From the NCBI GenBank assembly GCA_903847385.1, contig CAINDO010000561.1, positions 10,328-74,327 on the forward strand: a DNA stretch of 64,000 bases. Direction: 5' to 3'. Positions 2,063-27,394 of this stretch are shown here, piece by piece. The DNA is from an uncultured Myxococcales bacterium. GTDB taxonomy: Bacteria; Myxococcota_A; Bradymonadia; UBA7976; UBA1532. The notes beneath the pieces were generated by a model that ran no database searches, was not told where the DNA came from, and saw only the letters and a program-made list of their open reading frames with translations. Both the position numbers and the translations under genes were made by a program. Numbering within the stretch: the first letter of the stretch is position 1; the number at the start of each line of letters is the position of its first letter.

Positions 2063-2063
2063 C

Positions 2064-4556: not shown

Positions 4557-4609
4557 TGCCCCGAGCCACGGCGCGTATAAAGCGCCGGCCGCCCCGCCCC
4601 GAGAGTCCG

Positions 4610-5836: not shown

Positions 5837-5841
5837 CCGAC

Positions 5842-7764: not shown

Positions 7765-7787
7765 GTCGTCGTGCCGTCAGCAGACCG

Positions 7788-9716
7788 ATGCCGACCCTCG
7801 CGCCCGCCCGCCCCAGCGGCGAGCGCGCGGTCCGGGCGTACTTTCCCAGCACGGCCGAGCTGCCTGCCAAACCCGTCTACGAGGCGGTGACGCGGGTCTA
7901 CAACTTCCTCGGCGCGCTCGTGGGCATTCTGCTGCTCTCGCCGCTGCTCATCGGCATCGCCGTCGCCGTCAAGGTGACCTCGCCCGGGCCGGCGCTCTAT
8001 CGCGGCGCGCGGGTCGGTCGCCACGAGCAGCCCTTCCACATCTTCAAGTTCCGCACGATGCACACCGGCGCGGAGCAGAAGATCGGCAAGCGCCTCGTCC
8101 AGCAGACGGAGAACCACTTCACGCCCATCGGCAAGTTCCTGCGCCGCTACCGGCTCGATGAGCTCGCGCAGCTCTTCAACATGCTCAAGGGCGACATGAA
8201 CCTGGTCGGTCCGCGACCCATCCGACCGATCTTCCTCGAGGACCACAAGAAGACCGTCCCCGGCTACGCCAAGCGGTTCTTCGTGCGTCCGGGCATCACG
8301 GGCAAGGCGCAGGTGCGCGGCGGCTACTACACCTCGCCCCGGCACAAGCTGTTCTACGAGGTCATCTACATCCGCAACCGCGGCGTCTGGATGGACCTGA
8401 ACCTGATCGTGCTGACCTTCCTGCGGGTGATGAACCGCATCTTCACGACGGGATTCCTCCTGGCGTGGCTCCTTTTGCTCGCTCTGGTGCTCCCGAGCGA
8501 CATCCAGGCCGAGTTCACGATCCGCGTGGGCACGATGCCCCTGAACCTGATGTACATCCTGCCGCCGCTGATCGCGGCCTGGCACGTCTTCGGTCGCGAG
8601 GTCACGGACCAGCGGCTCTACGCGCTGCGGACGCCCGTCGACACGGCGCTCCTGGGTTTCCTGGCGGTCACGCTGTTCATCGTGCCCTTCAGCCGGGTGC
8701 CGCTCGAGGCCCTCAAGGGCCTGGGGTGGTACGTCTGCAACGGCGTCGTCATCTTCTACATCGTGCTGAACTCCCGGCTGGTGACGGAGCGGCGCACCAC
8801 GCTGATCAACACGCTGGTGTTCGGCGCCGCGCTGGCCGGGCTGCTCTCGGCGGACGTCCTCTGGGGGCACCTGAAGAACGCGAGCCATTCGGACATGCGC
8901 CTGGGGACGGGCGGTGTCGCCGTCGTCTTGTCGGCCCTGGGCATCGTCACCACGCCCCTGGCCCTCGCCCGCTTCGAACAGGCCCAGCGGCCCTGGCGCC
9001 GCGTCGCCTACCTGCTCGCGGCGGTCATCGTCGCCGGCACCACGCTCATGGCCTGGCGCCGCAGCGGTCTGCTCTTCCTGGCGCTGGCGCTGTTCCTGTA
9101 CTTCTGGCGCGAGCGACGCCGCCTCGCAGTCCTGGTCGGCCTCGCCTACACCGGCACGCTCGCGGCGCTCCTGGCCACCGGCACGGCCGGCTACCGCCCC
9201 GAGACCATCGCCGCCGACCTCACCGCCGATGTCGACCGCCAGGTGGTCGTCCTCGGCCACGTGCAGCCGCTCCGCCTCGCCGTGGGCGTGGGGGCGCGCG
9301 CCCTGCCCGCCCACGCGCAGAAGGACCAGAACGTCCGCAGCGCCGCCCGCAAGGACCGCGATCGCAACGAACGCGTGCCGCGGGTGCCCTCGCCCAACAA
9401 CACCTGGCTCACGCTGCTCGCCGAGCACGGCCTGCTCGGGTTCGCCTTCTTCGCGGCCTTCATGCTGCGCGGGCTGGGGCTCATGTGGCGGGCGACGGGG
9501 CGAATCACGGACACGAGCGCCCGCAAGGACCTCTGGGCCACGGTCGCGGGCCTCATCGGCTTCGCCGGGCTCATGTGTACGGCGGATCTCTTCTACCGCC
9601 TGCCGATGCTGCTCATCTTCTGGTGCGCCATGGGCCTCGGCATCGGCACGGCGCTCATGCACCAGCCCGGGCCGCGCACCTACTACCGGCTCGTTCACTA
9701 CCGCCACAAGCTCTGA
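7788..9716 (+). CDS. fusion protein: monotopic phosphoglycosyl transferase (bacterial sugar transferase domain) + C-terminal Wzy_C/O-antigen-ligase-like membrane domain
   Basis: N-terminal single TM followed by the sugar-transferase catalytic core ('HIFKFRTM...', 'NLVGPRP'). C-terminal ~420 aa are polytopic with the ligase/polymerase motif 'NNTWLTLLAEHGLLGF'. The track ORF 6507-9716 is a run-on in this frame across asnB; ATG 7788 (or TTG 7761) is the plausible start. Confidence 0.75.
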   Translation: MPTLAPARPSGERAVRAYFPSTAELPAKPVYEAVTRVYNFLGALVGILLLSPLLIGIAVAVKVTSPGPALYRGARVGRHEQPFHIFKFRTMHTGAEQKIGKRLVQQTENHFTPIGKFLRRYRLDELAQLFNMLKGDMNLVGPRPIRPIFLEDHKKTVPGYAKRFFVRPGITGKAQVRGGYYTSPRHKLFYEVIYIRNRGVWMDLNLIVLTFLRVMNRIFTTGFLLAWLLLLALVLPSDIQAEFTIRVGTMPLNLMYILPPLIAAWHVFGREVTDQRLYALRTPVDTALLGFLAVTLFIVPFSRVPLEALKGLGWYVCNGVVIFYIVLNSRLVTERRTTLINTLVFGAALAGLLSADVLWGHLKNASHSDMRLGTGGVAVVLSALGIVTTPLALARFEQAQRPWRRVAYLLAAVIVAGTTLMAWRRSGLLFLALALFLYFWRERRRLAVLVGLAYTGTLAALLATGTAGYRPETIAADLTADVDRQVVVLGHVQPLRLAVGVGARALPAHAQKDQNVRSAARKDRDRNERVPRVPSPNNTWLTLLAEHGLLGFAFFAAFMLRGLGLMWRATGRITDTSARKDLWATVAGLIGFAGLMCTADLFYRLPMLLIFWCAMGLGIGTALMHQPGPRTYYRLVHYRHKL

Positions 9717-9754
9717 GGCGGCCGCCCGCGGGCCCTTGCCGGCCGGGGCCGCGC

Positions 9755-10378
9755 TCAGCCCCGGCGACCGTGCAGGGCCACGCTGTCGGCGAAACGCGCC
9801 GGGTCCTCGACCGCGTCGAAGGCGGCGAGCCCCGAGTCGCCGAGGCGGGCGGGCCGCACGTCCACGAAGCCCGCCGCGACGAGCTCCCGGGTCAGGCCCG
9901 GCTCGTCCCAAAGCCACAAGTGCGCGCCGTTGCCGAACAGCCGCGAGGCCAGGCCCTTCCAGCCCCGGTCTCCGCCCGCGCGCCCCAAGAGCGACTTCTG
10001 CATGAACTCCGAGCAGGCGTCCGGCGCGCCGCTCTCCAGATAGCGCTGTGCCAGCACCCGCAGGTCGGGCACCACCACGCGGAACACGCCCCCCGGCTGG
10101 AGCAGGCGCAGGCTGTTGCGCAGCGCCACGCGGGCGTCCGCCAGGGCCAGGTGCTCGACCACGTGCGAGGAGTACACCCCTGCGCAGCTCGCGTCCGGCA
10201 CGGGCAGACCGCGCACGATGTCGCCGTAGCGAACGGACGCGGGGAATCGGGCGGCGTTCTTCGTGTACAGCCGACCGACGACGGGCAGGCGTTCGAAGCG
10301 CAGCGTCGGGCTGGCGTCGTAGTTCTCCCAGCCCTCGGGCGCGCTCAGGCCGCAGCCATACTGAACAAAGCGGGACAT
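9755..10378 (-). CDS. class I SAM-dependent methyltransferase (type 11-like)
   Basis: 'MSRFVQYGCGLSAPEGWENYD' start at 10378; 'VVEHLALADARVALRNSLRLLQPGGVFRVVVPDL' methyltransferase-fold motifs. The track's upstream Arg-rich extension is rejected. Confidence 0.75.
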   Translation of the reverse strand: MSRFVQYGCGLSAPEGWENYDASPTLRFERLPVVGRLYTKNAARFPASVRYGDIVRGLPVPDASCAGVYSSHVVEHLALADARVALRNSLRLLQPGGVFRVVVPDLRVLAQRYLESGAPDACSEFMQKSLLGRAGGDRGWKGLASRLFGNGAHLWLWDEPGLTRELVAAGFVDVRPARLGDSGLAAFDAVEDPARFADSVALHGRRG

Positions 10379-10395
10379 GGGGCCTCGGGGGGCGC

Positions 10396-12606
10396 TCAGG
10401 CGGGTTTGGTGGGCTCGGGCGCCCGGGGATCCTCGGCGTAGTAGGTGCCGTGCTTGCGGTAGTACGGGTGGTAGTACTGGCCGTAGGCGCGGCGCGAGAC
10501 GTCCACGTTGTTCAAGAGCGCGCCGAGGACCGTGATCTTCACGTCCTCGAGCAGGCGCTTGGCCTTGCGGACCATCTCGCGGCTCGTCTCGCCGGCGCGC
10601 ACCACGATGATGGCGCCGTCGCACTGATTGCCCAGGATCAGCGCGTCCGTGACGACACACACCGGCGGCGAATCCAGGATGATGCGGTCATAGCGCTCCA
10701 GCAGGCGCTCCATGACCCGATTGAACGAGGGCGAGTGCAGCAGCTCCGCCGGGTTCGGCGGGATCGGGCCGCTGCACAGGATGTCCAGGTTCTCCACGTC
10801 GCTGATCTGGACCACCTGGTCCAGGGGCTTCTCGGGCTCCAGCACCAGGTTGCTCAGGCCGCGATCGTTGGTCATATCGAAGACCTTATGGATGCGCGGG
10901 CGCCGCAGGTCCGTGTCGATCAGCAGCACCTTGGTGCCGGAGGTCGCCATGCTGGCGGCGACGTTCACGGACGTGCTCGTCTTGCCCTCGCGCGGGCCGG
11001 CGCTGGTCACCAGGAGCTTGCGCAGGGGTCGACCGGGGGTCATGAAGAGCAGGTTCGTCCGCACGGTCCGCACGCACTCGGCGGCGGTGCTGTGCGGGTA
11101 CTCGAGCACGTAGCGGTCGGGGTCCACGGGGCCCGAGGCCTCGAAACGATTGGCCTTCTTGCCCCGCTGCTGCTTGATCTTCGGCACCATGCCCAGGAAC
11201 GTCAGGCCCAGCTCCTTCTCGAGCTGGTCCTGGTTCTTGACCGAGCTGTCCAGGCTCTCGACGAGCAGGGCCAGGCCGATGCCGCCGAACAGCGCCAGCA
11301 CCAGGGCCACGGACAGATTCAGCGCCAGGCGGGGCGAAACGGGGCGATCCGGCACCAGCGCGGCGTCCAGGATGCGCACGTTGTTGGCGCGCGCCTCGGC
11401 CTGGAGCTGGGCCTCCTTCAGACGAAGGGCGAGCTGACCGTAGAGGTCCTTCTTGCCCTGAACGGCGGCCTCGAGGCGCTTGTACTCGAGCTCGACCGCG
11501 GTCAGGCCCTGCATCTCGCGCCCGACGGCGGCCGCCTCGGCGGCGAGCTTCTGCTCGGTGCTCACGGCCGACTGGTACTTGCGCTCCAGGCTCTGCTGGA
11601 TGCCCTTCACCTCGAGCTCCAGGTTGTGGCGGATGCGGGCGATCTTCTCGTCCGCCGTCTTCACGTCCGGGTGGGACTCCAGGTAGCGCTGGAGCAGGTC
11701 GCTGCGCTCGTTCTGGAGCGCCACGAGCTGCTCCTTGAGCCGCTGCACCAGACCGTTGGCCAGGACCTCTTCGACGCTCGTCTGCACCTGCATCGGGTCC
11801 AGCTTGCGCACCTGCTCCAGCACCGAGGCCAGCCGGGCCGACTCGACGCGGGCCTCGCGGAGCACCCGGTCGGCGTCCTGCTCGCGTACGCCGAGCTGGT
11901 TCTGCTTGTCGCCGAGCGAGGCCGTCATGATGCTGTTCTGCTGCTTGAACTTCAGCAGGGCGTCCTCGGCGGCCTCGACCTCTTTCTTGCCCTGCTCGAC
12001 CTGGGTGTTGAGCCACTTGGCGGCTTCGCCGGTGAACGAGATCTTGCGGTCCAGGTTGGCGTCCCCGTAGGCGTTGCACACGGCGTCCGCCAGGCGCGCG
12101 GCGCGCTCCGGGTTCTCGTCGCGCACCTTGACCAGGACGATGTTGCTCTCCTCGATGGGCTCGATCACCAGGCGTGAGGTCAGCGCCTGGATGGGGTCGA
12201 CCCGCTCGCGGGCGCGGGCGCGCTCGGCCGGGTCCTCGATCTTGGTGATGCCCAGGAAGTCCAGGTCGTGGCCGAGGTCGAGGCGCTCGACCACCATGGC
12301 GCTGACCATGCGGCTCTTCAGGATGCGGTACTGCGTCTCGAAGTACTCGCGGGTGTTCCAGTTGTTGGCCGTGCCGAGCGCCACGACCTCCTGCCCGGCG
12401 GAGTTGGGCAGGTACTGCGGCGCCGACTGATCGATGACGAGCTGCGTGACCGCCTCGTAGATTCGCGGCTGCTGGCGAGTGAAAATCACCGTGGCCGAGA
12501 TCACCAGGGCCCCGAAAACGAGCACGAGCACTTTGTGCTTCCAGACGATCTGGAGGTAGTGACCCAGCCCGAGCCAGGGCTCCGGATTCGAGGCGTCGTT
12601 CGTCAC
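10396..12606 (-). CDS. wzc: polysaccharide co-polymerase / tyrosine autokinase (Wzc-like PCP-2a)
   Basis: N-terminal TM and GNVR-type periplasmic coiled-coil region, second TM. Walker A 'GPREGKTS', Walker B 'RIILDSPP'. C-terminal tyrosine cluster 'YGQYYHPYYRKHGTYY'. Confidence 0.9.
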   Translation of the reverse strand: MTNDASNPEPWLGLGHYLQIVWKHKVLVLVFGALVISATVIFTRQQPRIYEAVTQLVIDQSAPQYLPNSAGQEVVALGTANNWNTREYFETQYRILKSRMVSAMVVERLDLGHDLDFLGITKIEDPAERARARERVDPIQALTSRLVIEPIEESNIVLVKVRDENPERAARLADAVCNAYGDANLDRKISFTGEAAKWLNTQVEQGKKEVEAAEDALLKFKQQNSIMTASLGDKQNQLGVREQDADRVLREARVESARLASVLEQVRKLDPMQVQTSVEEVLANGLVQRLKEQLVALQNERSDLLQRYLESHPDVKTADEKIARIRHNLELEVKGIQQSLERKYQSAVSTEQKLAAEAAAVGREMQGLTAVELEYKRLEAAVQGKKDLYGQLALRLKEAQLQAEARANNVRILDAALVPDRPVSPRLALNLSVALVLALFGGIGLALLVESLDSSVKNQDQLEKELGLTFLGMVPKIKQQRGKKANRFEASGPVDPDRYVLEYPHSTAAECVRTVRTNLLFMTPGRPLRKLLVTSAGPREGKTSTSVNVAASMATSGTKVLLIDTDLRRPRIHKVFDMTNDRGLSNLVLEPEKPLDQVVQISDVENLDILCSGPIPPNPAELLHSPSFNRVMERLLERYDRIILDSPPVCVVTDALILGNQCDGAIIVVRAGETSREMVRKAKRLLEDVKITVLGALLNNVDVSRRAYGQYYHPYYRKHGTYYAEDPRAPEPTKPA

Positions 12607-13928
12607 AGCTTCACCACCTTGGGGTTGTTCCGGCCCGCGCTCGCCGTCAGGTTGCGCGTGTCGACGATGCGGCGCGCGTGACGGAGGATCTGCTCGGGCT
12701 CGTAGTAGCGGTGATCGGTGACGATGACGACGACGTCGTAGGTCCCCATCTCCGCGTAGCTCAGGGGGCGGCTCTGCATCAGGCGGGCTTCCCCGCCGCC
12801 GTGGGCGAGGTCGATCTCGGGTACGAAGTTGTCCTGGTATTCCACCATCGCTCCCCGCGCGAGCAGGCCGTCGATGACCGGGATCGCCGGGGACTCACGC
12901 CAATCCGTGATGTCCCGCTTGTAGGAGACCCCGAGCACCAGGACCTTGGACCCCCGCAGAGGCCGCGCTTCGCCAACATTGTTGAGGGCGAGCGAAACAC
13001 GGTCGACCACGTAGTCGGGCATGTGGGAGTTGATGTCGTCCGCCAGCTCGATGAAGCGCGTGCGGTAGTTCAGCGTGCGCAGCTTCCAGCTCAGGTAGTG
13101 GGGATCGATGGGGATGCAGTGGCCACCCAGGCCCGGGCCCGGGTAGAACGGCATGAAGCCGAAGGGTTTGGTGGCCGCGGCCTCGATGATCTCCCACACG
13201 TCCAGGCCGAGCTTGTCCGCGATGATGGCGACCTCGTTCACCAGGCCGATGTTCACGGCGCGGAACGTGTTCTCCACCAGCTTGACCATCTCGGCGGCCG
13301 TGGGGCTCGACACCGCCACGACCTTGTCGCAGACCGTGGCGTACAGCGCGTGGGCGATGTCCGTGCAGGTGGGGGTCACGCCGCCGACGATCTTGGGCGT
13401 GTTCTTCACGTTGTAGACCGGGTTGCCCGGATCGATGCGCTCGGGGCTGAAGGCGAGGTGAATGTCCGTGCCGACCTTCAGGCCGGTGGACTCCAGCGCC
13501 GGCGCGACGATCTCGTCCGTCGTGCCCGGGTACGTGGTGCTCTCCAGGATCACGGCCTGACCCGAGCGCAGGTGCTTCACGATCCGCTCCGTGGCGGACA
13601 CGATGTAGCTGATGTCCGGGTCGCGCGTCTTGCGCAGGGGCGTGGGCACGCAGACGCTGATGGCGTCGCAGAGCGCCAGGTCGGCGAAGTCGGCCGTGGC
13701 CTTGAACTTGCCCGAGGCGACGAGGCGGGCGACGTCCTCGGCGGGCACGTCCAGGATGTAGGACTCGCCGGCGTTGAGCGCCTTCACCTTGGCGGGATCG
13801 ATTTCGAAGCCGATCACGGTGAAGCCCGCGTCGGCGAAGCCGGTGGCCAGCGGCAGGCCCACGTAACCGAGGCCGACGACGCCGACGACGGCGGTGCGCT
13901 GGGAGATGCGTTCGAGGATCGTGCTCAT
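12603..13928 (-). CDS. nucleotide-sugar dehydrogenase (UDP-GlcNAc/ManNAc/glucose 6-dehydrogenase family)
   Basis: 'VVGLGYVGLPLA' Rossmann motif, catalytic 'GGHCIPIDP', 441 aa. 4-bp overlap with wzc. Confidence 0.9.
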   Translation of the reverse strand: MSTILERISQRTAVVGVVGLGYVGLPLATGFADAGFTVIGFEIDPAKVKALNAGESYILDVPAEDVARLVASGKFKATADFADLALCDAISVCVPTPLRKTRDPDISYIVSATERIVKHLRSGQAVILESTTYPGTTDEIVAPALESTGLKVGTDIHLAFSPERIDPGNPVYNVKNTPKIVGGVTPTCTDIAHALYATVCDKVVAVSSPTAAEMVKLVENTFRAVNIGLVNEVAIIADKLGLDVWEIIEAAATKPFGFMPFYPGPGLGGHCIPIDPHYLSWKLRTLNYRTRFIELADDINSHMPDYVVDRVSLALNNVGEARPLRGSKVLVLGVSYKRDITDWRESPAIPVIDGLLARGAMVEYQDNFVPEIDLAHGGGEARLMQSRPLSYAEMGTYDVVVIVTDHRYYEPEQILRHARRIVDTRNLTASAGRNNPKVVKL

Positions 13929-13967
13929 GGAGCCCTTTCTGTCGCCGCGCGGGGCGGCGGAATCGGT

Positions 13968-14909
<942 letters not shown>

Positions 14910-14999: not shown

Positions 15000-15983
15000 G
15001 TGAACTCCGAGAGCCTGCGCACCTGCCTGAGAGCGTTCGTCGACGGCGACCGCGCGCTGCCCGCCCTCGGAGCCGAGGACGTGGCCATGGCGTCGGCGCA
15101 CCGTCTGGCGGGCACCCTCTACCACATGCGGGTGCCGTTGGGCCACGCCGAGCGACAATCCGTGCAGCGAACCTGGGCGTCGCAGGCGGCGGCGTACCTG
15201 CAGCGCGTGGCGGTGCTGCGGGCGCAGTGGCCGTCGCGCGCGCCGGCCCCGTTGCTCTTCAAGGGCGCCGACCTCGTCGAGAATCTGTACGGCGATCCCG
15301 GCGCGCGGCGCATGTCCGACCTCGACCTGATGCTGCCCCCCGCCGACTTCGACGCGGTCGCGACGTCGCTCGCGGCCCGCGCGGAGGCCAGCAGCACGCC
15401 CCGGGGCGAGGCCTTCGAGGGCGAGGCGGCCTATGAAATGGGCCTGCGCTTCGGCGACGTCACGCTGGAACTCCACCGTGCGCCGCAGCCGCTCCATCGC
15501 GGGGGGCCGAGCGCGGACGCGCTGTACGCGGCGAGCACGCCGGGCACGCTGGACGGCCTCGCCGTGCGTTTCCCCGCGCCCGAGGACCGCTGGCTGCTGT
15601 GGCTGACCAACCAGGCCAAGGGGTCGTTCCAGGGCGACCTGGCCGATCTGCTCGACCTCTGCCTGATTCTGCGCGCCCTGCCCGCCCCCCTGCCCTGGAC
15701 GCGGCTGCTCGCCCGTGCGCGCGCCGCCGGTCTCTCCCGGCCTGCAAGGCTGGCCCTGCGGAGGCTGGCCCGCGCCGGTCTCTGGAGCGGACCGCTCCCT
15801 GCCGTCGGCGAGGTCTCGGATGCGCTTGCCGACCGTCTGCTGCCCCCGCCGGACGCGCCGGCACTGGACATGCCGGCCTGGCGGTTTCAGGGCCTCAAGC
15901 TCTGGCTGGCCGATCCGTCGCGGCGAGCGGGCGTCTTGGCCCGGGCCGGCGCGACGCTCTGGCGGCGGCTGGACGCGCGCTGA
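15000..15983 (+). CDS. putative nucleotidyltransferase-family protein (uncharacterised NTase, PF14907-like)
   Basis: Real-looking 3' third of the artefactual 1101-aa track ORF. 'FKGADLVENLYGDPGARRMSDLDLMLPP' resembles the uncharacterised-nucleotidyltransferase family. The GTG 15000 start is uncertain (ATG 15087 is an alternative). Confidence 0.5.
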   Translation: MNSESLRTCLRAFVDGDRALPALGAEDVAMASAHRLAGTLYHMRVPLGHAERQSVQRTWASQAAAYLQRVAVLRAQWPSRAPAPLLFKGADLVENLYGDPGARRMSDLDLMLPPADFDAVATSLAARAEASSTPRGEAFEGEAAYEMGLRFGDVTLELHRAPQPLHRGGPSADALYAASTPGTLDGLAVRFPAPEDRWLLWLTNQAKGSFQGDLADLLDLCLILRALPAPLPWTRLLARARAAGLSRPARLALRRLARAGLWSGPLPAVGEVSDALADRLLPPPDAPALDMPAWRFQGLKLWLADPSRRAGVLARAGATLWRRLDAR

Positions 15984-16003
15984 CGCCCCGAGCGTTCAGG
16001 CGC

Positions 16004-16690
16004 TCAGAGCCAGGTCTCGGGCACGAAGATGATGTCGCCCGGCTGGAGTTGCACGTTCTGCTCGCGCCCGAGGCCGATGGCCTCCACGGGGGCGACGAAC
16101 TTCTTCTCGCTGCCGTCCACCACGCGCGTGATCACGGTGCGGTTCTTGTCGGCAAGATCCTTGAAGCCGCCGGCCATCGTGATGGCCTGCACCACGGTCA
16201 TGCTGTCCTCGAAGGCGAACGTCCCGGGTTTGTTGACCTCCCCGAGCACGAAGACCTTCTTGGAGTTGGACTCCTTCACGAAGACGGTCACCTGCGGATT
16301 GCGCAGGAAGCCCTCTTTCAGGCGCTCCGTGAGGTACTCGCTCAGGGCGCCGGGCGTCAGCCCGCCGGCCTTCACCTGCCCGACGAGCGGGTACTGGAAA
16401 GTCCCGTCCGTGGCCACGCGGAACAGGCCCGAGAGCCCCTGCTCCTCATAGACCCGCACCTCGACGACGTCCCCCACGCCGAGCAACGCGCCCTGAAGCA
16501 GCGCCGTCCGGTCGGGCGTCGGCGGCAGCGGCCGCTCCGGTGGCGCCTCGCTGCGCGGCGTACTGCCACATCCCACGATGAGCAGAAGCAGCAGCGGCAG
16601 GAGTCCCCGGAGCGCCCGGCGCAGGTCAGTAATTGACTTGCAGCTCGAGCATGACGAGCTGGCGGCTGTAGGCGACGGGGTCAAGACCAT
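16004..16690 (-). CDS. outer-membrane polysaccharide export (OPX, Wza-like) lipoprotein, short form lacking the C-terminal OM helix
   Basis: Lipobox 'LLLLLIVGC'. Poly_export motif 'GDVVEVRVYEE...F.V..DG....P..G.V...G'. One SLBB domain ('VFVLGEVNKPGTFAF...SMTVVQAITMAGG'). Ends 'FVPETWL' with no amphipathic C-terminal helix. The start is uncertain: ATG 16690 overlaps the upstream gene by ~65 nt; a non-ATG start nearer 'LRRALRG' is possible. Confidence 0.75.
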   Translation of the reverse strand: MVLTPSPTAASSSCSSCKSITDLRRALRGLLPLLLLLIVGCGSTPRSEAPPERPLPPTPDRTALLQGALLGVGDVVEVRVYEEQGLSGLFRVATDGTFQYPLVGQVKAGGLTPGALSEYLTERLKEGFLRNPQVTVFVKESNSKKVFVLGEVNKPGTFAFEDSMTVVQAITMAGGFKDLADKNRTVITRVVDGSEKKFVAPVEAIGLGREQNVQLQPGDIIFVPETWL

Positions 16691-17933
16691 CTCCCTCGGC
16701 GTTGATGGCAACACCGGACTCGAACTCGGACATGTTCTGCTGGCTGGCGACGTCGAGCTTGACGGTCATCCAGTCGCGGGGGTTGAAGCCCGCGTACACG
16801 TTGCCGCGCAGGACCGGGTCCGTGCGGCTGTCGCCCTGTCGATCCACGCCGCCTGCGTCGTCCGAGTAGGCGTAGTGGTCGAAACCGACCCGCCCGCCGA
16901 CGCTGAAGCGCCCGAGGAAGTAGAAGTCGACGCTGCCGTAGACCTGGTTCAGCGTGTAGAAGTTCGCGAACGCCGTGTCGCGCCCGTCGCGGTTGTAGCC
17001 GAGCGAAGCGCGCAGCGCCGGCTCGATCGCGTACGTGAGCTCCGCCGTGGCGATCAGGTTCGAGAACGAGGTGCCCTCGGCGTTGAACGTGTTCTTGTAG
17101 CCGGCCTTGAGCGTCGTCGAAATGTGCCGTGTGACGAGGCCCTTCACGCCGGCGAGCACGAAGAACGGCTGCGCGTCGCGGTTGGTCCGCACCGATGATG
17201 TCTGGCCGCCCGCACCGGCCACGGCCACGTCCAGCTGCTTGTCGTACGAGAGCGAGGTCCAGCCGACCTCGGCGAGGAGCGCGGTCTTCGGCAGGAAACG
17301 CCAGCTCGTCAGGAAACGCAGATGGTGCGCGTCCTTCTCACCCACGCTGGTGTTCAACTCCTCGGCGTCGTCCCCGATGAAGTTCACCGACTGCCAGCGG
17401 TAGCCCAGGCGGAGCTCGAACGGCCGCGAGTCGGGGTTGTCACCGGGCCGGAAGCGCAGGTCGACCCCGAGGCTGTTGTCCAGCATCCGGAAGCCGAACT
17501 CCGTGTCGTCGAAGGCCGGGTTGTCGCGGAAGTTGCCGTCCTCGTGGACCTCGACCGTGATCGGCGAGCGCGGCAGGAATCCGACGGTCGCGTTCAGGTT
17601 CGCCCGATCGATGGTGTTGCGCGCGCTGAACTCCTCGCCGGACTCGAAGTAGTGGCGGTAGCTCAGACCCGCCCCCGCCTGGAGGGAGAGTTTGTTCGGC
17701 GAGCGGTTCTCGAGGCCGACCCCGACGCCGGCGCGCATCAGCGACGACGACTCGGGCTCCTCGCCCGTGTCGTCGAAGAAGACGTTGTTGTCGAACGCGC
17801 CCTGCACGAAGGCGTCCGGGTGGATGACGAGATCCCCCGCCCGGATGCCCGGCCCCTCGGCGTGCGCGAGCCCGGTCGCCGAAACGACGAGGAGGGCGGC
17901 CCGAAAGAGGGGTCTCTGCACACGCGTGATCAT
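16626..17933 (-). CDS. outer-membrane beta-barrel protein (candidate OPX partner / GltH-NfsH-like)
   Basis: Signal peptide 'LLVVSATGLAHA'. 435 aa of alternating amphipathic beta-strand pattern rich in G/Y/F/N/D, ending '...LQVNY'. Immediately upstream of and overlapping the OPX gene. Confidence 0.7.
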   Translation of the reverse strand: MITRVQRPLFRAALLVVSATGLAHAEGPGIRAGDLVIHPDAFVQGAFDNNVFFDDTGEEPESSSLMRAGVGVGLENRSPNKLSLQAGAGLSYRHYFESGEEFSARNTIDRANLNATVGFLPRSPITVEVHEDGNFRDNPAFDDTEFGFRMLDNSLGVDLRFRPGDNPDSRPFELRLGYRWQSVNFIGDDAEELNTSVGEKDAHHLRFLTSWRFLPKTALLAEVGWTSLSYDKQLDVAVAGAGGQTSSVRTNRDAQPFFVLAGVKGLVTRHISTTLKAGYKNTFNAEGTSFSNLIATAELTYAIEPALRASLGYNRDGRDTAFANFYTLNQVYGSVDFYFLGRFSVGGRVGFDHYAYSDDAGGVDRQGDSRTDPVLRGNVYAGFNPRDWMTVKLDVASQQNMSEFESGVAINAEGDGLDPVAYSRQLVMLELQVNY

Positions 17934-17961
17934 CCGGACGTCCTCGTCGCCTTCCTACGCT

Positions 17962-18525
17962 TCAATAGGCCAAGGTGGCGGGAAACGGACGATCGATGTC
18001 GATCGGCTCGCCGGCCAGGATGTCGCCCTCGGTCGGGTCGTCCTGCCGGATGTCGGAATCGATGGTGCTCTCGACCTCGGTGCCGCCGGTGTACTGCGAC
18101 TGCTCACCGACGCAGCCCTCGATCTCCACGCGGAACGCCTCGACCCTCGCGCGGGCGAGGTCGATCTTCGTCACGTTGTGGTGGATGAGCTCGGGGCTCT
18201 TCGCGCCGATGGCCTCGCGGAGGGCCTGCCCGGAGAGCTCGCCGATCTGGACCAGGCCGCGGATGGCCTTCACCTTCGCGTTGATGCAGTTGTACCGCAT
18301 CAGGTCCTTCTCGCCGCGGGCCTGCTCCAGCCGATCGATGCCCTGCTTCAGGGTGTCCTGCATCTGGTCGATGGAGGTCGACGACTGCTCGAGGACCTCG
18401 TCGTCCGAGCGCTTCTCCGCGGGGTTGGCCCCGGCGGTGGGCCCCGAGGTCGCTGCCGCGACTGCGCCTGCAGCGCAGAAGCCGACGAGCGTGGCCACGA
18501 GGGCGAAGCGGACTGTACGAATCAC
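17962..18525 (-). CDS. hypothetical secreted protein
   Basis: Signal peptide 'VRFALVATLVGFCAAGAVAAA'. Largely helical, acidic C-terminus. No recognisable domain. Confidence 0.55.
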   Translation of the reverse strand: MIRTVRFALVATLVGFCAAGAVAAATSGPTAGANPAEKRSDDEVLEQSSTSIDQMQDTLKQGIDRLEQARGEKDLMRYNCINAKVKAIRGLVQIGELSGQALREAIGAKSPELIHHNVTKIDLARARVEAFRVEIEGCVGEQSQYTGGTEVESTIDSDIRQDDPTEGDILAGEPIDIDRPFPATLAY

Positions 18526-18632
18526 GGGAGCCTCCTGCCTGCGGCTTACTACTTTATGGACCCCGGTCAGTCAACGATACACTCAAAATCCTCTGAGCAA
18601 GTATCGGCACGACGGCAGGAGATTTCGAGGGG

Positions 18633-20033
18633 TCAATTCGAGGGCGCGAAGATGAAGGGGAACGAGACCGTCACCGTGCCACCTTCGGGGGGCGGGAAGC
18701 GCCAACGGTCCATCTGGCTCTTGATGCACTCGGCCACGGCCGGTTCGCCCATGGAGTCCGACTTCGCGGAGACGTCCATCACGCGGCCGCCTTCGTTGAT
18801 GGTGAACTGCATCACGATCTTGCCCTGGAGCTGCGGGTTGCGCTTGAGCTCCTTCTCGTAGCAGCCCTTCACGCCGCCGATGCGGCCCTTGACCGCCGAA
18901 GCGATCTTGCTGGTCTCCAGGGTGCCGGTGCCGAAGGTCTCCGAGGGCTCGGCGGCCTTCACGGTGCCCTTGACCTGGACCTCCTGGCCCTTGCTGCCGG
19001 ACTCGACGTTGCCCGTCGCGCCCTCGGCGTTGAGGTCGTCGCTCTTGAGCGTGCTGATCTTGCCCGTCCCGGCGGCGCCGGCGCGGCGGTCGCGGGCCTG
19101 GGTGTTGTTGTCGGCCACGGCGACGCCGGTGGCGCCCTCGAACGCGGTGTTGATGGCGACGTCTGCGCGATCGTTCCGCAGCGTGTCCACGATGGACGAA
19201 CCCTCGGCGCCGATGCCGGAGCCGAGCACGCCGATGATGGTCTTGCTGGCGACGGCCTTCTTCACGTCCTCGGCGTGCGCCTTCGCGTCCACCTCGGGCT
19301 TGGGCTTGTCGTCGGCGACGACCTTGGGCTTGTCGTCGACCCGCGGGCGCGGCGGCTCGTCCTTCTTCTTGGCGACCTCTTCCTTCTTCTCGTCCGCCTT
19401 CTCGTCCTTCTTCTCGTCCTTCTTTTCCTCGACCACCTTGGGCGGCTTCGGCTTGGTGATGATCTGGACGATGCGGTCGGGGAGTTGTTCGATGCCGACG
19501 GGCTTCTCGGGCACGTCCATGGTGACGACGTACACGACCAGCGCGATCTGCATCACGAGGCTGCCCGTCAGCGTGGCCGTGAACGGCCAGTCCATGCTGT
19601 GCATCCAGCCGCCCTTGACGTTGGCGGGGAGCTGCAGGCGCGAGGGCGGCGGCGGCGGCATGACGAACTGGAAGAGCAGCGTGACGTCGCCCACGACGAC
19701 CTTGCCGCGGCTCTTCTCGGAGAGCGGCAGGGTCCAGAACTCGCCCTTGCGATCGGCGAGCTTCTTGGCGACCACCCCCTTGAAGTCCAGCACGGCGTCG
19801 TCGATGGAGACGCGGCCGTCCATGCCGTCCTTGAAGACGAGGTGGTACACGCCGCTCTTCAGCTCGAAGAGCACGTGGCTGCGCGCGAAGGGCGCCGTCG
19901 GCAGGACGAAGGTGTTGCGCGGCGACTGGCCGATCGTGACGGGATCGCGCTTCCGGAGCAGCCGCTCCTCGATGATCTTCCCGCTCTGGATGATCCCGAT
20001 GCGCAGGATCTTCCGGTCGTTTCTCTGGGCCAT
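18633..20033 (-). CDS. FHA-domain / TonB_C-domain bitopic inner-membrane protein (GltG/AgmX/NfsG-like)
   Basis: N-terminal FHA-like region ('VTIGQSPRNTFVL...ARSHVLFE...GVYHLVF...GRVSID'). One TM ('LTGSLVMQIALVVYVV'). Pro/Lys/Glu/Asp-rich linker. C-terminal TonB_C-like domain ('GKIVMQFTINEGGRVMDV...AECIKSQMDRWRFPPPEGGTVTVSFPFIF'). Confidence 0.7.
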   Translation of the reverse strand: MAQRNDRKILRIGIIQSGKIIEERLLRKRDPVTIGQSPRNTFVLPTAPFARSHVLFELKSGVYHLVFKDGMDGRVSIDDAVLDFKGVVAKKLADRKGEFWTLPLSEKSRGKVVVGDVTLLFQFVMPPPPPSRLQLPANVKGGWMHSMDWPFTATLTGSLVMQIALVVYVVTMDVPEKPVGIEQLPDRIVQIITKPKPPKVVEEKKDEKKDEKADEKKEEVAKKKDEPPRPRVDDKPKVVADDKPKPEVDAKAHAEDVKKAVASKTIIGVLGSGIGAEGSSIVDTLRNDRADVAINTAFEGATGVAVADNNTQARDRRAGAAGTGKISTLKSDDLNAEGATGNVESGSKGQEVQVKGTVKAAEPSETFGTGTLETSKIASAVKGRIGGVKGCYEKELKRNPQLQGKIVMQFTINEGGRVMDVSAKSDSMGEPAVAECIKSQMDRWRFPPPEGGTVTVSFPFIFAPSN

Positions 20034-20105
20034 CTGCGTTGTCCCTTACCTGTCTGACCTTCTACGCGATTCGACATTCCGCCGGGGGAAAGGTTCCCGT
20101 GCGGT

Positions 20106-20354
20106 TCAGAACGGTTCCTTCTCGACGCTCTGCAGAATCTCGGGCAGGAAACTCTTCTTCGGCTCGAGGCCTTTGAAGTTCACGTCGCCCTTCTGGAGGA
20201 TGTAGAAGGCCTCGGGCTTCTGAATCTGACCCTCGACCTTGAGGGCGTCGATCTGGATGACCTTGCCTTTCCCCTTGTCGCGCTTCTTCTCCTGCGCGGC
20301 GGCGGGGGTGGCGGCGATGATCAGGGCCAGACAGGCCAGGACGAAAGTCTTCAT
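20106..20354 (-). CDS. small secreted protein (GltF/NfsF-like position)
   Basis: 82 aa, signal peptide 'FVLACLALIIAATPAAA'. 4-bp overlap with the upstream TPR lipoprotein gene. Confidence 0.5.
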   Translation of the reverse strand: MKTFVLACLALIIAATPAAAQEKKRDKGKGKVIQIDALKVEGQIQKPEAFYILQKGDVNFKGLEPKKSFLPEILQSVEKEPF

Positions 20355-21616
20355 TTCTCTCCCCCATCGGCGGAAGCGGGCGCCGCTGCGGGCGCGGGCT
20401 TCGGGTCCTTGCGGGCGGCTTCGGCCTTCTTCTGCTCGACCACGATGCGCTTGTTGGCCTCGGCGATGTACTGATCGACGGGGTCGTTGGCGGCGGGTCG
20501 GCCGGGGGCCTGCTTGTAGCGCTGGAAAAAGTCGACGGCCTGCTGCAGGCGCGACAAGGGCTCGACGCCCGGGAGCTGGCCGTCCAGGTAGAGGATGCCC
20601 AGGTTGAACAGGACATCCCCCGAGTTCGGATTGAGCTCGAGCGCGCGCTTCATGGCAGCATCTGCATCGGCGTACTTCTGCTGGCCCTTGAGCGCGTTGC
20701 CCAGGTTCATCTGGGCCGCCAGGAACTGCGGGTGCCGGCTCAGCGACTGGCGGAACATGCCCTCGGCGCCGGCGTAGTCGCCGGCCTCGTGATAGACCAG
20801 CCCGAGATCGTTGTAGACCTCGGCGCTCGCGCCCCCGGGGAGCGCGACGGCTTTCTCCAGCTGCAGGCGGGCCTGGGGCTTCTCGTTGAGCGCGACGTAG
20901 CTGCGCGCCATCTTGGCGTAGGGCTCGGGATCGTTGGGATCGTTGGCCGAAGCGCTGGCGAGCACGGCGATGGCCAGCTCGTGTTTGCCCTGGCGCGCGT
21001 AACCGGCGCCGAGGACCTTCATGGCCTCGACGTTCTTCTCATCCGCCCGAAGGACGCCCGTCGCGTCGGCGATCGCGCCGGCGACGTCGTTGTTCGCCAA
21101 CTTGAGGCGCGCGACCGCGTTGCGCACGCCCGTGCTCTCCGGGGCCTTCTCCAGCCGCTCCTGCGCGAAGGACAACGCCGCGGCGGCGTCCCCCTTGCGG
21201 AGCATGATCTGGGCGATGGCGGTGACGGCGGGGCCGAACTCGGGGCGGGCGTCGAGGGCCTGCTTGTAGAAGCGACGCGCCTCGACGTCGTTGCCCTGCC
21301 GCTCGGCGAGGACACCGAGGTTGTACAGCGGCTCGGGCGCAGAGCTGTCGGTGGAGGCGGCGGACTCGTAGGCGCGGCGCGCGGCGTCCAGATTGCCGGC
21401 GGCGGCCTCGCGCTGACCCTGCTCGAGCTGGCCGGCGATCTCCGGGGAAACCGTCGCCTGGGGCGCGGCCTCGGGGATGTGCGTCGAGCCCGAGGAGTCG
21501 CCGGCGACGGGCGCAGCGCCTCCAGAGGCGGCGGTACCGGACTTGCCCTTGGGGCCACCGCCACAGGCGGACGTCAGGGTGAGCGCGACGAGCGCGATGG
21601 TCAGGTGGGTCTTCAC
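20351..21616 (-). CDS. TPR-repeat lipoprotein (GltE/AglT/NfsE-like)
   Basis: Lipobox 'LTLTSAC', then repeated TPR-like helices (Y/A/L/G/N periodicity). 4-bp overlaps on both sides. Confidence 0.75.
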   Translation of the reverse strand: MKTHLTIALVALTLTSACGGGPKGKSGTAASGGAAPVAGDSSGSTHIPEAAPQATVSPEIAGQLEQGQREAAAGNLDAARRAYESAASTDSSAPEPLYNLGVLAERQGNDVEARRFYKQALDARPEFGPAVTAIAQIMLRKGDAAAALSFAQERLEKAPESTGVRNAVARLKLANNDVAGAIADATGVLRADEKNVEAMKVLGAGYARQGKHELAIAVLASASANDPNDPEPYAKMARSYVALNEKPQARLQLEKAVALPGGASAEVYNDLGLVYHEAGDYAGAEGMFRQSLSRHPQFLAAQMNLGNALKGQQKYADADAAMKRALELNPNSGDVLFNLGILYLDGQLPGVEPLSRLQQAVDFFQRYKQAPGRPAANDPVDQYIAEANKRIVVEQKKAEAARKDPKPAPAAAPASADGGEK

Positions 21617-24600
21617 TTCTCACCCTCCTCGGCTTCGGCCGGCGCCGCGTCCGAGGGCGCGGGGGTGGGCGGCGGCGGAGGCGCGGTGAGGAGCCGGGCC
21701 GGGGTCATGTCCTCGCCGGAGAACACGCGCCGCTCCTCCTTGAAGAGCGGGTAGTCCGCCGGCTTGAACTTGTTCAGCGAGGTCAGGATTCGCTTCGTCC
21801 ACTCGTTCGTGACCTTGAACTCGCGGGCCTTGTCGTAGGCCGTGACGTAACGCTTGACCGCCTCGTCCTCGATCGGCAGCGCGATGTCCTCGAGCTGGGT
21901 CCGGTAGGCGTCCTGCTCCTCCTCGGAGAGCCCCGGGGGAATCGGAGCGTCGTACAGCGCCTGCGCGAAGACCTGGTACATGTGGCCGAGCCGGTAGAAC
22001 GCCGCGAGCGTCCACTCGAACGCCTTGTAGTCGATGACCTCGGCGTACTGGCGCTGCAGGTCCTTGATGCGGCCCTGCATGTCCTTGATGGTCTTGCCCT
22101 GGTTCTGGAGCGAGCCGGTGAGCTTGAGGGCCTCGTACTTCTGGAACTCGAGCTCGACGATCTTGAAGCGCGCCTTGGCCGGGTGGACCGCGATGGGCGT
22201 GCCGCCCTGGAGGCCACGGGCGTTGAACTCGTTGATGATGCGGTCCCAGGTCTGGCGCGCCGAGCGGCCGTTGCCCTGCTCCTCGTAGATGTCCGCCGAC
22301 CGCGAGAGGCCGGTGATGACCTTCTCGGCGTTCGCCCGATCCACGCCGTACTTCTTGATGAAGGTGTCGTAGATGCGCAGGGCGTTGCGGGTGTCCTTGA
22401 GCTTCTCGTAGTTCCGAGCCGCGCGGAAATAGGTCTCCGCAGCGTCGGGCTGGCCCGGGAACATGTCCGCGTACTTCTCGAAGTTCGCCGCGGCGCGCTG
22501 GTACTGCTGGGTCTCCTCCTGCAGTTCCGCCGCCTGGAGCAGCGACTCGGAGCGGTGCTCCGACGCCGGGTACTTCTCCATCAAGAGCAGGTGGCTGCTG
22601 ATGGCGCGGTCGTAGTCGAAGAACCGCTCGGAGTTCACCGCCACGCGGAAGAGCGCCTCGCTGGCGAACTCGCTCTGCGGGTACTCCTGGTAGATGCGCT
22701 GATAGGTGTTCGTCGCCGACTCGAAGCGCCGGACCTGCTCGAACGCCACGGCGGCGTTGTTCAAGGCCTTGTCGGCGAACTTGTTCTTGGCGTCCTTATC
22801 CACGAGCTCGACGTACTTGAGCGCGGCGGCCTCGTACTTCTTGTCGTTGAACAGGGCCTCGGCCTGCTTGAAAGCCGCGCCGGTCTCGAGCTTGCGGATC
22901 TGCTCCGCCAGGACACCCTGCTCCTCTTTGGAGCCGATGTTCGCGGCGCTGAGCTTCCCGGCCCAGAGCTTCATGTTGTCCCAGTCGTTCGCGGCGCGGT
23001 ACGTCTGAATGATGTTGTTCGCGGCGAAGTAGGCGACCTTCTCCTGCGGGTACTTCTCGACGACGAAGGAGAACCACTTCCGGGCCTCGTCGTAGTGTTT
23101 GTACTCGTAGAAGACCTCGCCGGCCTTGTAGGCCACGCGGGGCAGCTTGCCGGCGTCGGCCGGGTCCTTGAGGCCCTTCTCGACGTAGGCGACGCGAGCG
23201 TTCACGAGCTTCATGACCACCGGCGGGATCGGCTCCGGCTCGATGACCCGGATCGACTCGGTGCCATCGCCGACGGGTTTGTCCCCCGTGGCCTTGGCCG
23301 CCGTGCTCTCGATGGGCTGGTTGAGCAGCGACGGGCGTGACTCGATCTTGCCGCTGTCGATGTCCTGCTTGACCGTCGACTCGTTCGACAGGATCGCGCT
23401 GAAGCCGGCGAGTTCCTGGTACTTCGTGCCCAGGCTCGAGTCGCGCACGGCCTCGTACTGGGTGGCGGCCTCGCCGAACCGGAACGAGTAGAAAAGGCAC
23501 TCGGCGTAGAAGAAGCCGAGCTCGTAGGCGTTCTCGGAGGTCGGGTACTTGCGCAGGTAGTTGTCGTAGGCGACGGCGGCGAGTTTGTACTCCTTGATCG
23601 CCTCGTCCTCGGCCTCGACCTTGCCCGCCTTCGCTTCTTCTTTGAGGGCCTGCGCGCGCGTGTGGTGGTACTGGGCGGCGGTGATCAGCGCCCCCTCGAC
23701 CAGCTTCTCCGCGTTCCGGATGACCTCGGTGTTCGAGCGGTTCGCCTCGTGCCAGGCGGAGCCCTCGCCATAGCTGCGGGCCAGCGTGTCGCGCTCGGCG
23801 AAGGCGTCGTCGAAGCGACGCAGGCGCTCGTAGGCGACGATCACGTTCTGGCTGAGCGCCGGGTTCTCCGGGTTGTTCGGGAACTTCTTGATGAGGAACC
23901 GCGTGGCCTCGATGCTCTCCTCGTACTTCGAGTTGTCGAAGTAGATCTGAGCGATGCCCTTGAGGACCTCGACCTCGTAGGGCTTGTCGCCCGACAGGTA
24001 GCGCAACGCCCGGTTGAAGCCCGCGTCGTCGTCCGGCCGACCGTCGCCGTCCCAGTCCTCTTCCTGGAGCGAGATCGCCAGGTACTGGATGGCCTCGGCG
24101 CGGAGGTCCGAGCCCTTCGCCCCGGACTTGGCCGCCTGCTCGTCGCTGTACTCGACCAGCGACTTGAAGCGCTTGATGGCGTCGTCGTACTGGTCGTTGC
24201 GGTAGTAGGTCCAGGCGAGCTTGTACAAGGCCTTGTCGTAGAAGGGCGTGTCCTTGTACGCGAGGACCTTGGAGTAGGCGTCGATCGCCTTGGGCAGGTC
24301 GTTGTAGTCGAAGAAGTACTCACCGATGCGCAGCCACGCCTCGGGAACAAACTTGCTGTCCGGGTACTTCTCCACCAGCGTCGTGAACTGGTCCAGCGCC
24401 GGCTTGTCCTCGCCCATCTCCTTGAGGCAGTAGCCCTTCAGGTACATGGCGCCGTCGGCGTTGCGGTTGTCCGGCCAGCGCCCGAGGAGGCGGTCGAAGA
24501 GCGAGATCGTCGAGCGGTAGTCCTGGCGCGGCTCCGAGGGCGGCTCGGGCATCTCGCCGGCGTCGAACTTCTTCAGGTCGCCCTCGTACTGCTCGAGGGC

Positions 24601-27391: not shown

Positions 27392-27394
27392 GCC

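Follow-up and report, generated by a model that had tools for sequence, protein, structure and literature searches.

A short OPX lipoprotein encoded next to a predicted 18-stranded outer-membrane barrel in an uncultured Myxococcota: a probable counterpart of WzaB/WzpB

How could a polysaccharide leave the cell through an OPX (outer-membrane polysaccharide export) protein that ends before any helix capable of spanning the outer membrane? This question is raised by a contig of an uncultured Myxococcales bacterium (CAINDO010000561.1), of which we analysed positions 10,328 to 74,327; this whole stretch of 64,000 nucleotides is the window to which all coordinates below refer. On its minus strand, a gene for an outer-membrane beta-barrel of 435 amino acids (aa), a WzpB/EpsX-type porin (16626–17933), is followed directly by a gene for a short OPX lipoprotein (16004–16684 from its likeliest start). 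A previous reading of the letters alone, here called the original prediction, had taken the two as a composite translocon in which the barrel supplies what the OPX protein lacks. We consider it very probable that the pair forms the outer-membrane end of a Wzx/Wzy-type pathway, consisting of a Class-3 OPX protein together with an 18-stranded porin, and that it is the counterpart of Myxococcus xanthus WzaB/WzpB, with the OPX protein most likely starting at a TTG codon at 16684. We adopt this reading because of the domain content, the end-to-end match to WzaB, the model of the barrel and the conserved synteny.

The OPX protein, the barrel and their pairing

The OPX protein has a Poly_export domain (Pfam PF02563, E 4e-21, 75.4 bits against a cutoff of 28) and a single SLBB/SLBB_2 domain (Pfam E 2e-13 and 7e-13), and the Pfam scan returned no Wza_C, no GfcC and nothing else beyond these domains. 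The SLBB_2 match extends to residue 231 in an open reading frame of 236 codons, and the protein closes with ...FVPETWL before the TGA at 16006–16004. Its length is 226 aa from the TTG and 206–228 aa over the candidate starts, within the working cutoff of about 280 aa or less that Schwabe et al. (2022) used for Class-3 (D1D2) OPX proteins. A lipobox (LLLLLIVG-C) has its Cys codon at 16568–16570, the predicted acylated N-terminus of a mature protein of 188 aa that extends from the Cys at 16570 to 16007. A lipoprotein signal peptide is found in about half of the Class-3 OPX proteins and is required for WzaB. The Poly_export domain, the one SLBB domain without D4, the length and the lipoprotein signal together assign the protein, as judged from its sequence, to the Class-3 (D1D2) OPX proteins.

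The best sequence match in the Protein Data Bank (PDB) was 9N9A, the crystal structure of soluble M. xanthus WzaB (sWzaB), with an E-value of 3e-57, 196.7 bits and 52% identity over 180 aa. The alignment extends from just past the lipobox linker to the penultimate residue, and the identity reaches 55.5% in the folded part. Only D1 and D2 could be aligned with E. coli Wza (E ~6e-20). The phmmer alignment to 2W8I shows the OPX protein shortened by two deletions, of 3 and 8 residues, among the first strands of D1, where the loop region of the Wza gate lies, and the protein is predicted to lack the tyrosine-ring gating loop of the Class-1 protein. That the protein stops after the SLBB domain without an outer-membrane helix, as originally proposed, is borne out by the end of the SLBB_2 match, the absence of Wza_C and the end-to-end match to 9N9A. 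We also looked for an extended frame that would add a C-terminal helix and found none. The DNA past the OPX stop is the antisense of a convergent gene for an uncharacterised nucleotidyltransferase (NTP_transf_5; 15000–15983, plus strand), and no C-terminal extension is possible because this gene ends 20 nt away. An extension by read-through or frameshift was likewise ruled out by the convergent gene and by the common end of the protein in 63 of 64 homologues.

Both open reading frames lie where the original prediction had placed them, and their G+C contents at third codon positions (GC3; OPX gene 0.88, barrel gene 0.92) are as expected for real genes at the ~70% G+C found across the window. 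The barrel gene extends from ATG at 17933 to TGA at 16628–16626. Its product has a signal-like N-terminus, MITRVQRPLFRAALLVVSATGLAHA, with a signal peptide at about residues 1–25, and Tyr as the C-terminal residue. The AlphaFold2 model, based on a 29-sequence alignment, has a mean pLDDT of 84.8 and a pTM of 0.79 and is all-beta past the signal-like N-terminus. As read from the DSSP elements of the model, the protein is predicted to have 18 transmembrane strands, with a long kinked hairpin at 217–266. A barrel of about 16–18 strands behind a signal peptide had been anticipated, and a non-barrel fold, which would have spoken against it, was not borne out. A Foldseek search of the PDB with the model retrieved outer-membrane barrels only. 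The best size-matched neighbour was AlgE (TMq 0.47–0.50, E ~1e-7), alongside OccK porins, a moderate similarity; AlgE is also the structural neighbour given for EpsX (PMC9601211). Among 29 relatives of the barrel, 17 matched BBP2_2 (PF10082).

We surveyed the 80 best genome loci with a homologue of the barrel (22–70% identity), all from metagenome-assembled genomes (MAGs). The best-matching loci all belong to uncultured Myxococcota/Bradymonadia, many from lakes, and several metagenomes hold contigs identical to the window. A short OPX gene lies directly downstream of the barrel gene in 64 of the 80 loci. The mature OPX protein has 179–188 aa in 63 of these 64, and a Cys after a hydrophobic run, a lipobox as read from sequence, is likewise present in 63. 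When only fully flanked loci are counted, those having 8 kb or more upstream and 1.5 kb or more downstream (n = 54), an OPX gene is found downstream in 41 and none in 13. The adjacency of barrel and OPX genes is beyond chance. A fusion of the two proteins by a +1 frameshift was considered and rejected: the barrel depends on a C-terminal strand of its own, which closes with Tyr, a lipobox inside a fused chain would escape processing, and relatives with ordinary junction starts have two separate genes.

In M. xanthus, the C-terminus of WzaB (F203-F204) docks on WzpB, and R106-R107 of WzaB binds the polysaccharide co-polymerase (PCP) WzcB (PMC12819527). The C-terminal dipeptide is hydrophobic or aromatic in nearly all of the 63 barrel-linked OPX homologues (among them IL in 17, WL in 14, IW in 8 and FF in 2) and is W-L in the window, a parallel to F203-F204 of WzaB. 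The twin arginine is not kept, the window having FLRNPQV for YVRRPQV of WzaB, that is, R-N in place of R106-R107. The position of this PCP-binding motif could be located by pattern in 31 of the 63 homologues, 27 of which have Arg and 4 Lys as the first residue, mostly followed by N, D or S.

The R-N in place of the twin arginine is one of several points that count against our assignment. The barrel itself has no Pfam or NCBIfam match, and a sequence-profile search of the PDB gave only a chance match. The Foldseek TM-scores to AlgE are only ~0.5, and TonB-dependent receptors rank ahead of it by E-value. Finally, homology of the barrel to WzpB is putative and is suggested indirectly, by the conserved neighbours that match MXAN_1915 and MXAN_1919–1923.

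The start of the OPX gene

Where does translation of the OPX gene begin? No ATG, GTG or TTG that could serve as a start lies between the barrel stop and the lipobox Cys (16570); the one codon of these types in that stretch is a GTG two codons before the Cys. Gene callers disagree on contigs identical to the window, giving either a truncated product of 160 aa or 226 aa from TTG 16684. The original prediction had seen no ATG, GTG or TTG near the signal peptide and had left translational coupling or a rare start codon as explanations; the nearest ATG (16690–16688) was said to overlap the barrel gene by 65 nt, giving 228 aa. The ATG is as described and the puzzle is real, but a TTG at 16684–16682 had been overlooked, from which the product would have 226 aa and the genes would overlap by 59 nt (16626–16684, minus strand), the OPX frame being +1 relative to the barrel frame. 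Start-type codons also occur further upstream, GTG/TTG at 16714/16711. The ATG at 16690 is an unlikely start, as no spacing separates it from a Shine-Dalgarno (SD)-like motif and two related loci (L085 and L086 of our survey) lack it.

The lack of a start codon might also mean that the OPX gene has lost it and is a decaying or poorly expressed pseudogene, a reading that would agree with the stretch from barrel stop to lipobox without a start other than the GTG near the Cys and with the 160-aa product given by one gene caller. We regard this as highly improbable, given the intact frame, the GC3 of 0.88, a mature length of 188 aa that is constant in relatives of 68–100% identity, and a folded part that is 55% identical to a crystallised functional orthologue.

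When the barrel–OPX junction was compared across 12 related loci, sister lineages proved to have ordinary starts at it: ATG at +4 or +7 (L004, L005), GTG at +1 (L006, L007), and GTG or ATG at -14 (L008, L009). A junction start is missing in seven members of the window's own clade, namely the window, L088, L089, L084, L090, L085 and L086, whose OPX proteins are 68–100% identical. All seven have a TTG 59 nt inside the barrel gene, which in the window is TTG 16684–16682. This TTG is formed by a barrel codon ending in T and a following GAY, the first codon being CTT, GTT or ATT depending on the member. Codons ending in T are rare in the operon (CTT 2.3%, GTT 3.0%, ATT 4.7%), and the CTT that makes TTG 16684 is the only CTT among the 40 Leu codons of the barrel gene. 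Six nucleotides upstream of the TTG, within the barrel coding sequence, lies an SD-like GAGGGAG (16691–16697, minus strand). Such a motif (GAGGGAG, GAGGA, AGGAGG or AGGAG) precedes the TTG by 5–6 nt in six of the seven clade members, the equivalents in L084, L085 and L086 being GAGGA, AGGAGG and AGGAG. The barrel residues encoded at the motif differ among the members and fall in a low-confidence loop of the barrel model. The neighbouring genes carry similar signals, AGGAGG 6 nt before the GTG of the 187-aa gene upstream and GAGGA 7 nt before the ATG of the barrel gene.

These comparisons incline us somewhat towards translation of the OPX protein from TTG 16684 inside the barrel gene, where the embedded GAGGGAG would serve as its SD-like signal. 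Against such a start stand several observations. One clade member, L090, has no SD-like motif before the TTG. A start at the TTG implies a signal sequence of 38 residues with an n-region of 26 residues, which is unusually long. L004 and L005 keep the TTG at -59, formed with rare ATT codons, despite a normal ATG at the junction and with no strong SD-like motif. Furthermore, the window has a CTG exactly where sister clades have GTG.

This CTG (16622–16624, minus strand), 1 nt past the barrel TGA, introduces the alternative that the OPX protein starts at a non-canonical junction codon by termination-reinitiation after the barrel. The codon occupies the same position as the GTG of L006 and L007 and is present in five of the seven members of the clade; in L085 and L086, an ATT overlapping the barrel stop would take its role. 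The product from CTG 16624 would be MRRALRGLLPLLLLLIVGC, with a compact signal peptide of 19–20 residues, and junction-start peptides of this kind (another being MERAFAALL...FGC) resemble textbook lipoprotein signals. OPX starts in most other loci also lie 0–60 nt past the barrel stop. However, the junction-start model has to invoke two rare codons that differ within a single clade, the CTG has no SD-like motif before it, and the model leaves the kept rare NTT codon and the purine-rich motif at TTG -59 unexplained in seven sequences. We therefore keep reinitiation at the CTG as a possible but rather doubtful explanation, and of the two explanations left by the original prediction, a rare start codon appears less simple than a conserved upstream TTG with an SD-like motif. 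N-terminal proteomics, which had been suggested for this purpose, cannot settle the start because the signal peptide is removed and every candidate start yields the same mature acylated protein. The embedded TTG could be useful for annotation and expression work in this clade.

Neighbouring genes: a Glt-like set, a polysaccharide cluster and a small helical protein

The pair stands at the end of a string of minus-strand genes in one orientation, from ~28.3 kb to 16.0 kb. In 5' to 3' order, the string encodes a 297-aa protein with no assigned function (at the ~28.3-kb side); a GltC-like tetratricopeptide-repeat (TPR) protein of 757 aa (~25121–27394), which has an NCBIfam GltC match; a GltD-like TPR protein of 1,175 aa (~21613–25140) with TPR/YbgF-type repeats; a GltE-like TPR lipoprotein of 421 aa (20351–21616); a GltF/CglF-like protein of 82 aa (20106–20354); a GltG-like protein of 466 aa (18633–20033) with an AgmX/PglI/TonB_C tail; a 187-aa protein (17962–18525); and finally the barrel and the OPX protein. 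The NCBIfam matches to GltG, CglF, GltE and GltC are all below the equivalog cutoffs, and the Pfam matches are to TPR and TonB_C. These Glt-like genes (18633–27394, minus strand), upstream of the barrel gene in the same orientation, constitute what we call a G4-type set after the "G4" Glt-like cluster of M. xanthus, MXAN_1919–1923, listed by Luciano et al. (2011). The products of MXAN_1919 to MXAN_1923 have 447, 91, 490, 1111 and 809 aa, compared with 466, 82, 421, 1175 and 757 aa for the GltG-, GltF/CglF-, GltE-, GltD- and GltC-like proteins of the window. Both the order and the sizes of the set agree with MXAN_1919–1923, which adjoins wzpB (MXAN_1916) and wzaB (MXAN_1915).

The same neighbourhood could be read differently, with the barrel as the outer-membrane member of the Glt-like complex, in the position of GltH/NfsH, and the OPX gene only incidentally adjacent. 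The original prediction had offered a GltH/NfsH-like identity as an alternative or additional role. The barrel gene indeed comes after the GltC/D/E/F/G-like genes, oriented as they are and with short gaps between genes, and no other outer-membrane component is obvious in the window's set. In the fully flanked loci, Glt-like D/E/G genes occur upstream in 22 of 54, of which 18 also have an OPX gene and 4 do not. On the other hand, 23 of the 54 have the barrel and OPX genes, usually followed by a PCP gene, with no Glt-like genes. M. xanthus GltH has 209 aa and an autotransporter-like beta domain with a weak PF03797 match (PMC3169522), and has been modelled as a small accessory barrel (PMC11761067), whereas the barrel in the window has 435 aa, a predicted 18 strands and no such Pfam match. 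Moreover, the homologous position in M. xanthus is held by WzpB, which binds WzaB and is needed for export of the biosurfactant polysaccharide, BPS (PMC12819527). There is in our view little chance that the barrel belongs to the Glt-like complex rather than to the OPX protein, and an identity as GltH/NfsH was rejected on the size and on the co-occurrence (OPX in 41 of 54 loci against Glt-like genes in 22 of 54). The porin may additionally serve as the outer-membrane contact of the Glt-like complex. As a separate observation, Glt-like synteny is present in 18 of the 41 fully flanked loci with both barrel and OPX genes, and also in M. xanthus according to its gene numbering.

On its other side, the barrel/OPX pair borders a polysaccharide cluster, and it lies at the junction of the Glt-like set and this Wzx/Wzy-type cluster. 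Further down the minus strand follow genes for a TviC-like epimerase, a nucleotide-sugar dehydrogenase (UDP-ManNAc/GlcNAc type) and then a Wzc-like PCP-2a co-polymerase of 736 aa with a fused tyrosine kinase (10396–12606; Pfam Wzz, GNVR and AAA_31; NCBIfam TIGR01005 and TIGR01007). The PCP gene is 3.4 kb downstream of the OPX gene, and its product is likely the inner-membrane partner of the OPX protein. The plus strand upstream carries genes for a Bac_transf phosphoglycosyl transferase, an AsnB-like amidotransferase, a GT4 glycosyltransferase and a Wzy_C protein. The Wzy_C, GT4, Bac_transf, PCP-kinase, nucleotide-sugar dehydrogenase and TviC-like epimerase genes, identified with Pfam and NCBIfam, are all within 15 kb of the pair. 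For the amidotransferase, the best NCBIfam match was the XrtA/PEP-CTERM system amidotransferase, below the cutoff.

Several further features of the neighbourhood were observed. The polysaccharide genes, including one for a methyltransferase, occupy 1938–14909 contiguously with the OPX gene. The NTP_transf_5 gene is wedged convergently between the OPX and epimerase genes, a layout also present in the close relatives L001, L002, L086 and L088–L090. The GTG of the PCP gene overlaps the TGA of the upstream nucleotide-sugar dehydrogenase gene (GTGA, 12603–12606, minus strand), a classic translational-coupling junction. The gap of 107 nt that separates the GltG-like gene from the 187-aa gene (18526–18632, minus strand) is visibly less GC-rich than its flanks and has AGGAGG at its end. 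This gap could hold an internal promoter for the three downstream genes; a scan with the sigma-70 consensus found nothing there, and a promoter and terminator scan of 15800–20400 gave nothing above shuffles.

The 187-aa secreted protein encoded directly upstream of the barrel (17962–18525, minus strand), here called u187, is linked to the barrel even more tightly than the OPX protein is. A member of its family lies directly upstream of the barrel in 73 of the 80 loci, and four of the seven exceptions are contig ends, which leaves 73 of the 76 loci that could be assessed. With a profile built from close relatives, we retrieved 1,111 representative clusters at E<=1e-3, mostly of 175–230 aa; u187 matched no Pfam or NCBIfam family. 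It has a signal peptide, two invariant Cys residues and, in the AlphaFold2 model, a three-helix bundle at 41–136 with pLDDT above 90. Its C-terminal tail (DIRQDDPTEGDILAGEPIDIDRPFPATLAY) is acidic and rich in proline, highly conserved and predicted to be disordered. A literature search on MXAN_1917, MXAN_7419 and MXAN_3224 found no papers. In eight loci from Myxococcaceae/Polyangiales MAGs (L022, L036, L042, L050, L060, L063, L073 and L074), u187 and the barrel occur together, while OPX, PCP and Glt-like genes are all absent within 10 kb; the barrel is at ~10001–11260 in these orphan loci, and the neighbours in L022 and L060 include an M18 aminopeptidase and an epimerase.

We consider u187 a candidate third component of the exporter. 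The exporter might even be part of a larger conserved module, in which u187 would act for Wzp-type porins as a third subunit or assembly factor not described so far and G4 would be coupled to the exporter mechanically or spatially, as Nfs is to Exo; this proposal is tentative, and we would not expect it to hold in full. If it were true, G4 would be a motor-linked device for the deposition or export of a BPS-like polymer. The linkage suggests, by analogy with the Nfs-Exo partnership, a role of the orphan G4 cluster in handling such a polymer, and its recurrence makes this a testable hypothesis. For the genetically tractable WzpB/WzaB system, u187 is an obvious candidate partner. What seems worth following at this locus is the likely start codon inside the barrel gene, the helical protein that almost always accompanies the barrel, and the linkage to G4.

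A proposed export path and its known counterparts

By analogy with the work on M. xanthus (PMC9601211, PMC9603273, PMC12819527), from which we infer oligomerisation, docking and polymer passage, the two proteins could function as follows. The OPX precursor would be cleaved and acylated at the Cys encoded at 16570–16568 and anchored to the outer membrane at its inner leaflet. It would then oligomerise, probably as an octamer, into a two-tier periplasmic ring made of D1 (Poly_export) and D2 (SLBB), without a tyrosine-ring gate and without a D4 helix. The W-L dipeptide would dock on the periplasmic rim of the 18-stranded barrel, which would supply the pore through the outer membrane, and the Wzc-like PCP would reach from the inner membrane up to the OPX ring.

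Composite translocons of this kind are documented in M. xanthus, both as a D1D2 OPX protein with an 18-stranded barrel (Schwabe et al., 2022; PMC9601211) and as a Class-3 OPX protein with a Wzp porin (Saidi et al., 2022; PMC9603273). WzaB, WzpB and WzcB have been dissected by Mellouk et al. (2026; PMC12819527), who described lipidation-dependent octamerisation of the OPX protein under the outer membrane. The pair in the window resembles WzaB (MXAN_1915) and WzpB (MXAN_1916) of the BPS pathway in having the barrel gene before the OPX gene, a D1D2 lipoprotein of ~200 aa that ends at the same position with a hydrophobic dipeptide, a similar-sized barrel with a predicted 18 strands, Glt-like G4 genes upstream and a PCP with a fused kinase. 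It differs in ending with W-L instead of F-F and in having R-N instead of R106-R107. The window genes overlap by 59 nt, or abut if the CTG is the start, whereas wzaB and wzpB are separated by a 23-bp gap. Furthermore, the OPX gene of the window forms one contiguous stretch with the genes for the PCP, Wzy, glycosyltransferase and sugar-nucleotide functions, whereas the BPS cluster of M. xanthus is split by >1 Mbp (PMC9603273).

The original prediction had compared the arrangement with EpsY/EpsX. The architecture agrees with that comparison, since EpsY/EpsX (WzaX/WzpX) and ExoA/ExoB (WzaS/WzpS) also combine a D1D2 OPX protein lacking an outer-membrane helix with an 18-stranded AlgE/PgaA-like barrel, and these partners are mutually dependent in M. 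xanthus (PMC9601211). The closest pair, however, appears to be WzaB/WzpB: the OPX protein scores 89.8 bits against the NCBIfam EpsY equivalog, whose cutoff is 320, and 196.7 bits against WzaB (9N9A). In the eps and exo clusters, the OPX gene is upstream of the barrel gene (PMC9603273), whereas the barrel gene comes first in the window. With the Class-1 protein Wza of E. coli (PDB 2J58, 2W8I), the OPX protein shares the homologous D1 (PES) and D2 (SLBB) domains and an N-terminal lipoprotein signal, but D3, the C-terminal D4 helix that forms the outer-membrane pore and the tyrosine-ring gating loop are all absent from its sequence. Like P. aeruginosa AlgE, the barrel is predicted to have 18 strands, although its identity to AlgE and E. 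coli PgaA is only ~9–10%. Those barrels of synthase-dependent pathways pair with TPR proteins or domains, whereas the barrel in the window would work with an OPX ring. The combination of a Glt-like complex with an OPX/barrel exporter recalls the M. xanthus Nfs (Glt-like G3) and Exo systems, which work together in sporulation (PMC3169522); nfs and exo are separate loci, whereas their analogues in the window are contiguous.

The locus would be a further example of a well-documented translocon class, in this case from an uncultured freshwater lineage of Myxococcota. Its layout, with the Glt-like genes, the small helical protein, the porin, the OPX protein, the sugar-nucleotide genes and the PCP in succession, probably represents an ancestral contiguous order, the M. 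xanthus equivalent of which is scattered over >1 Mbp.

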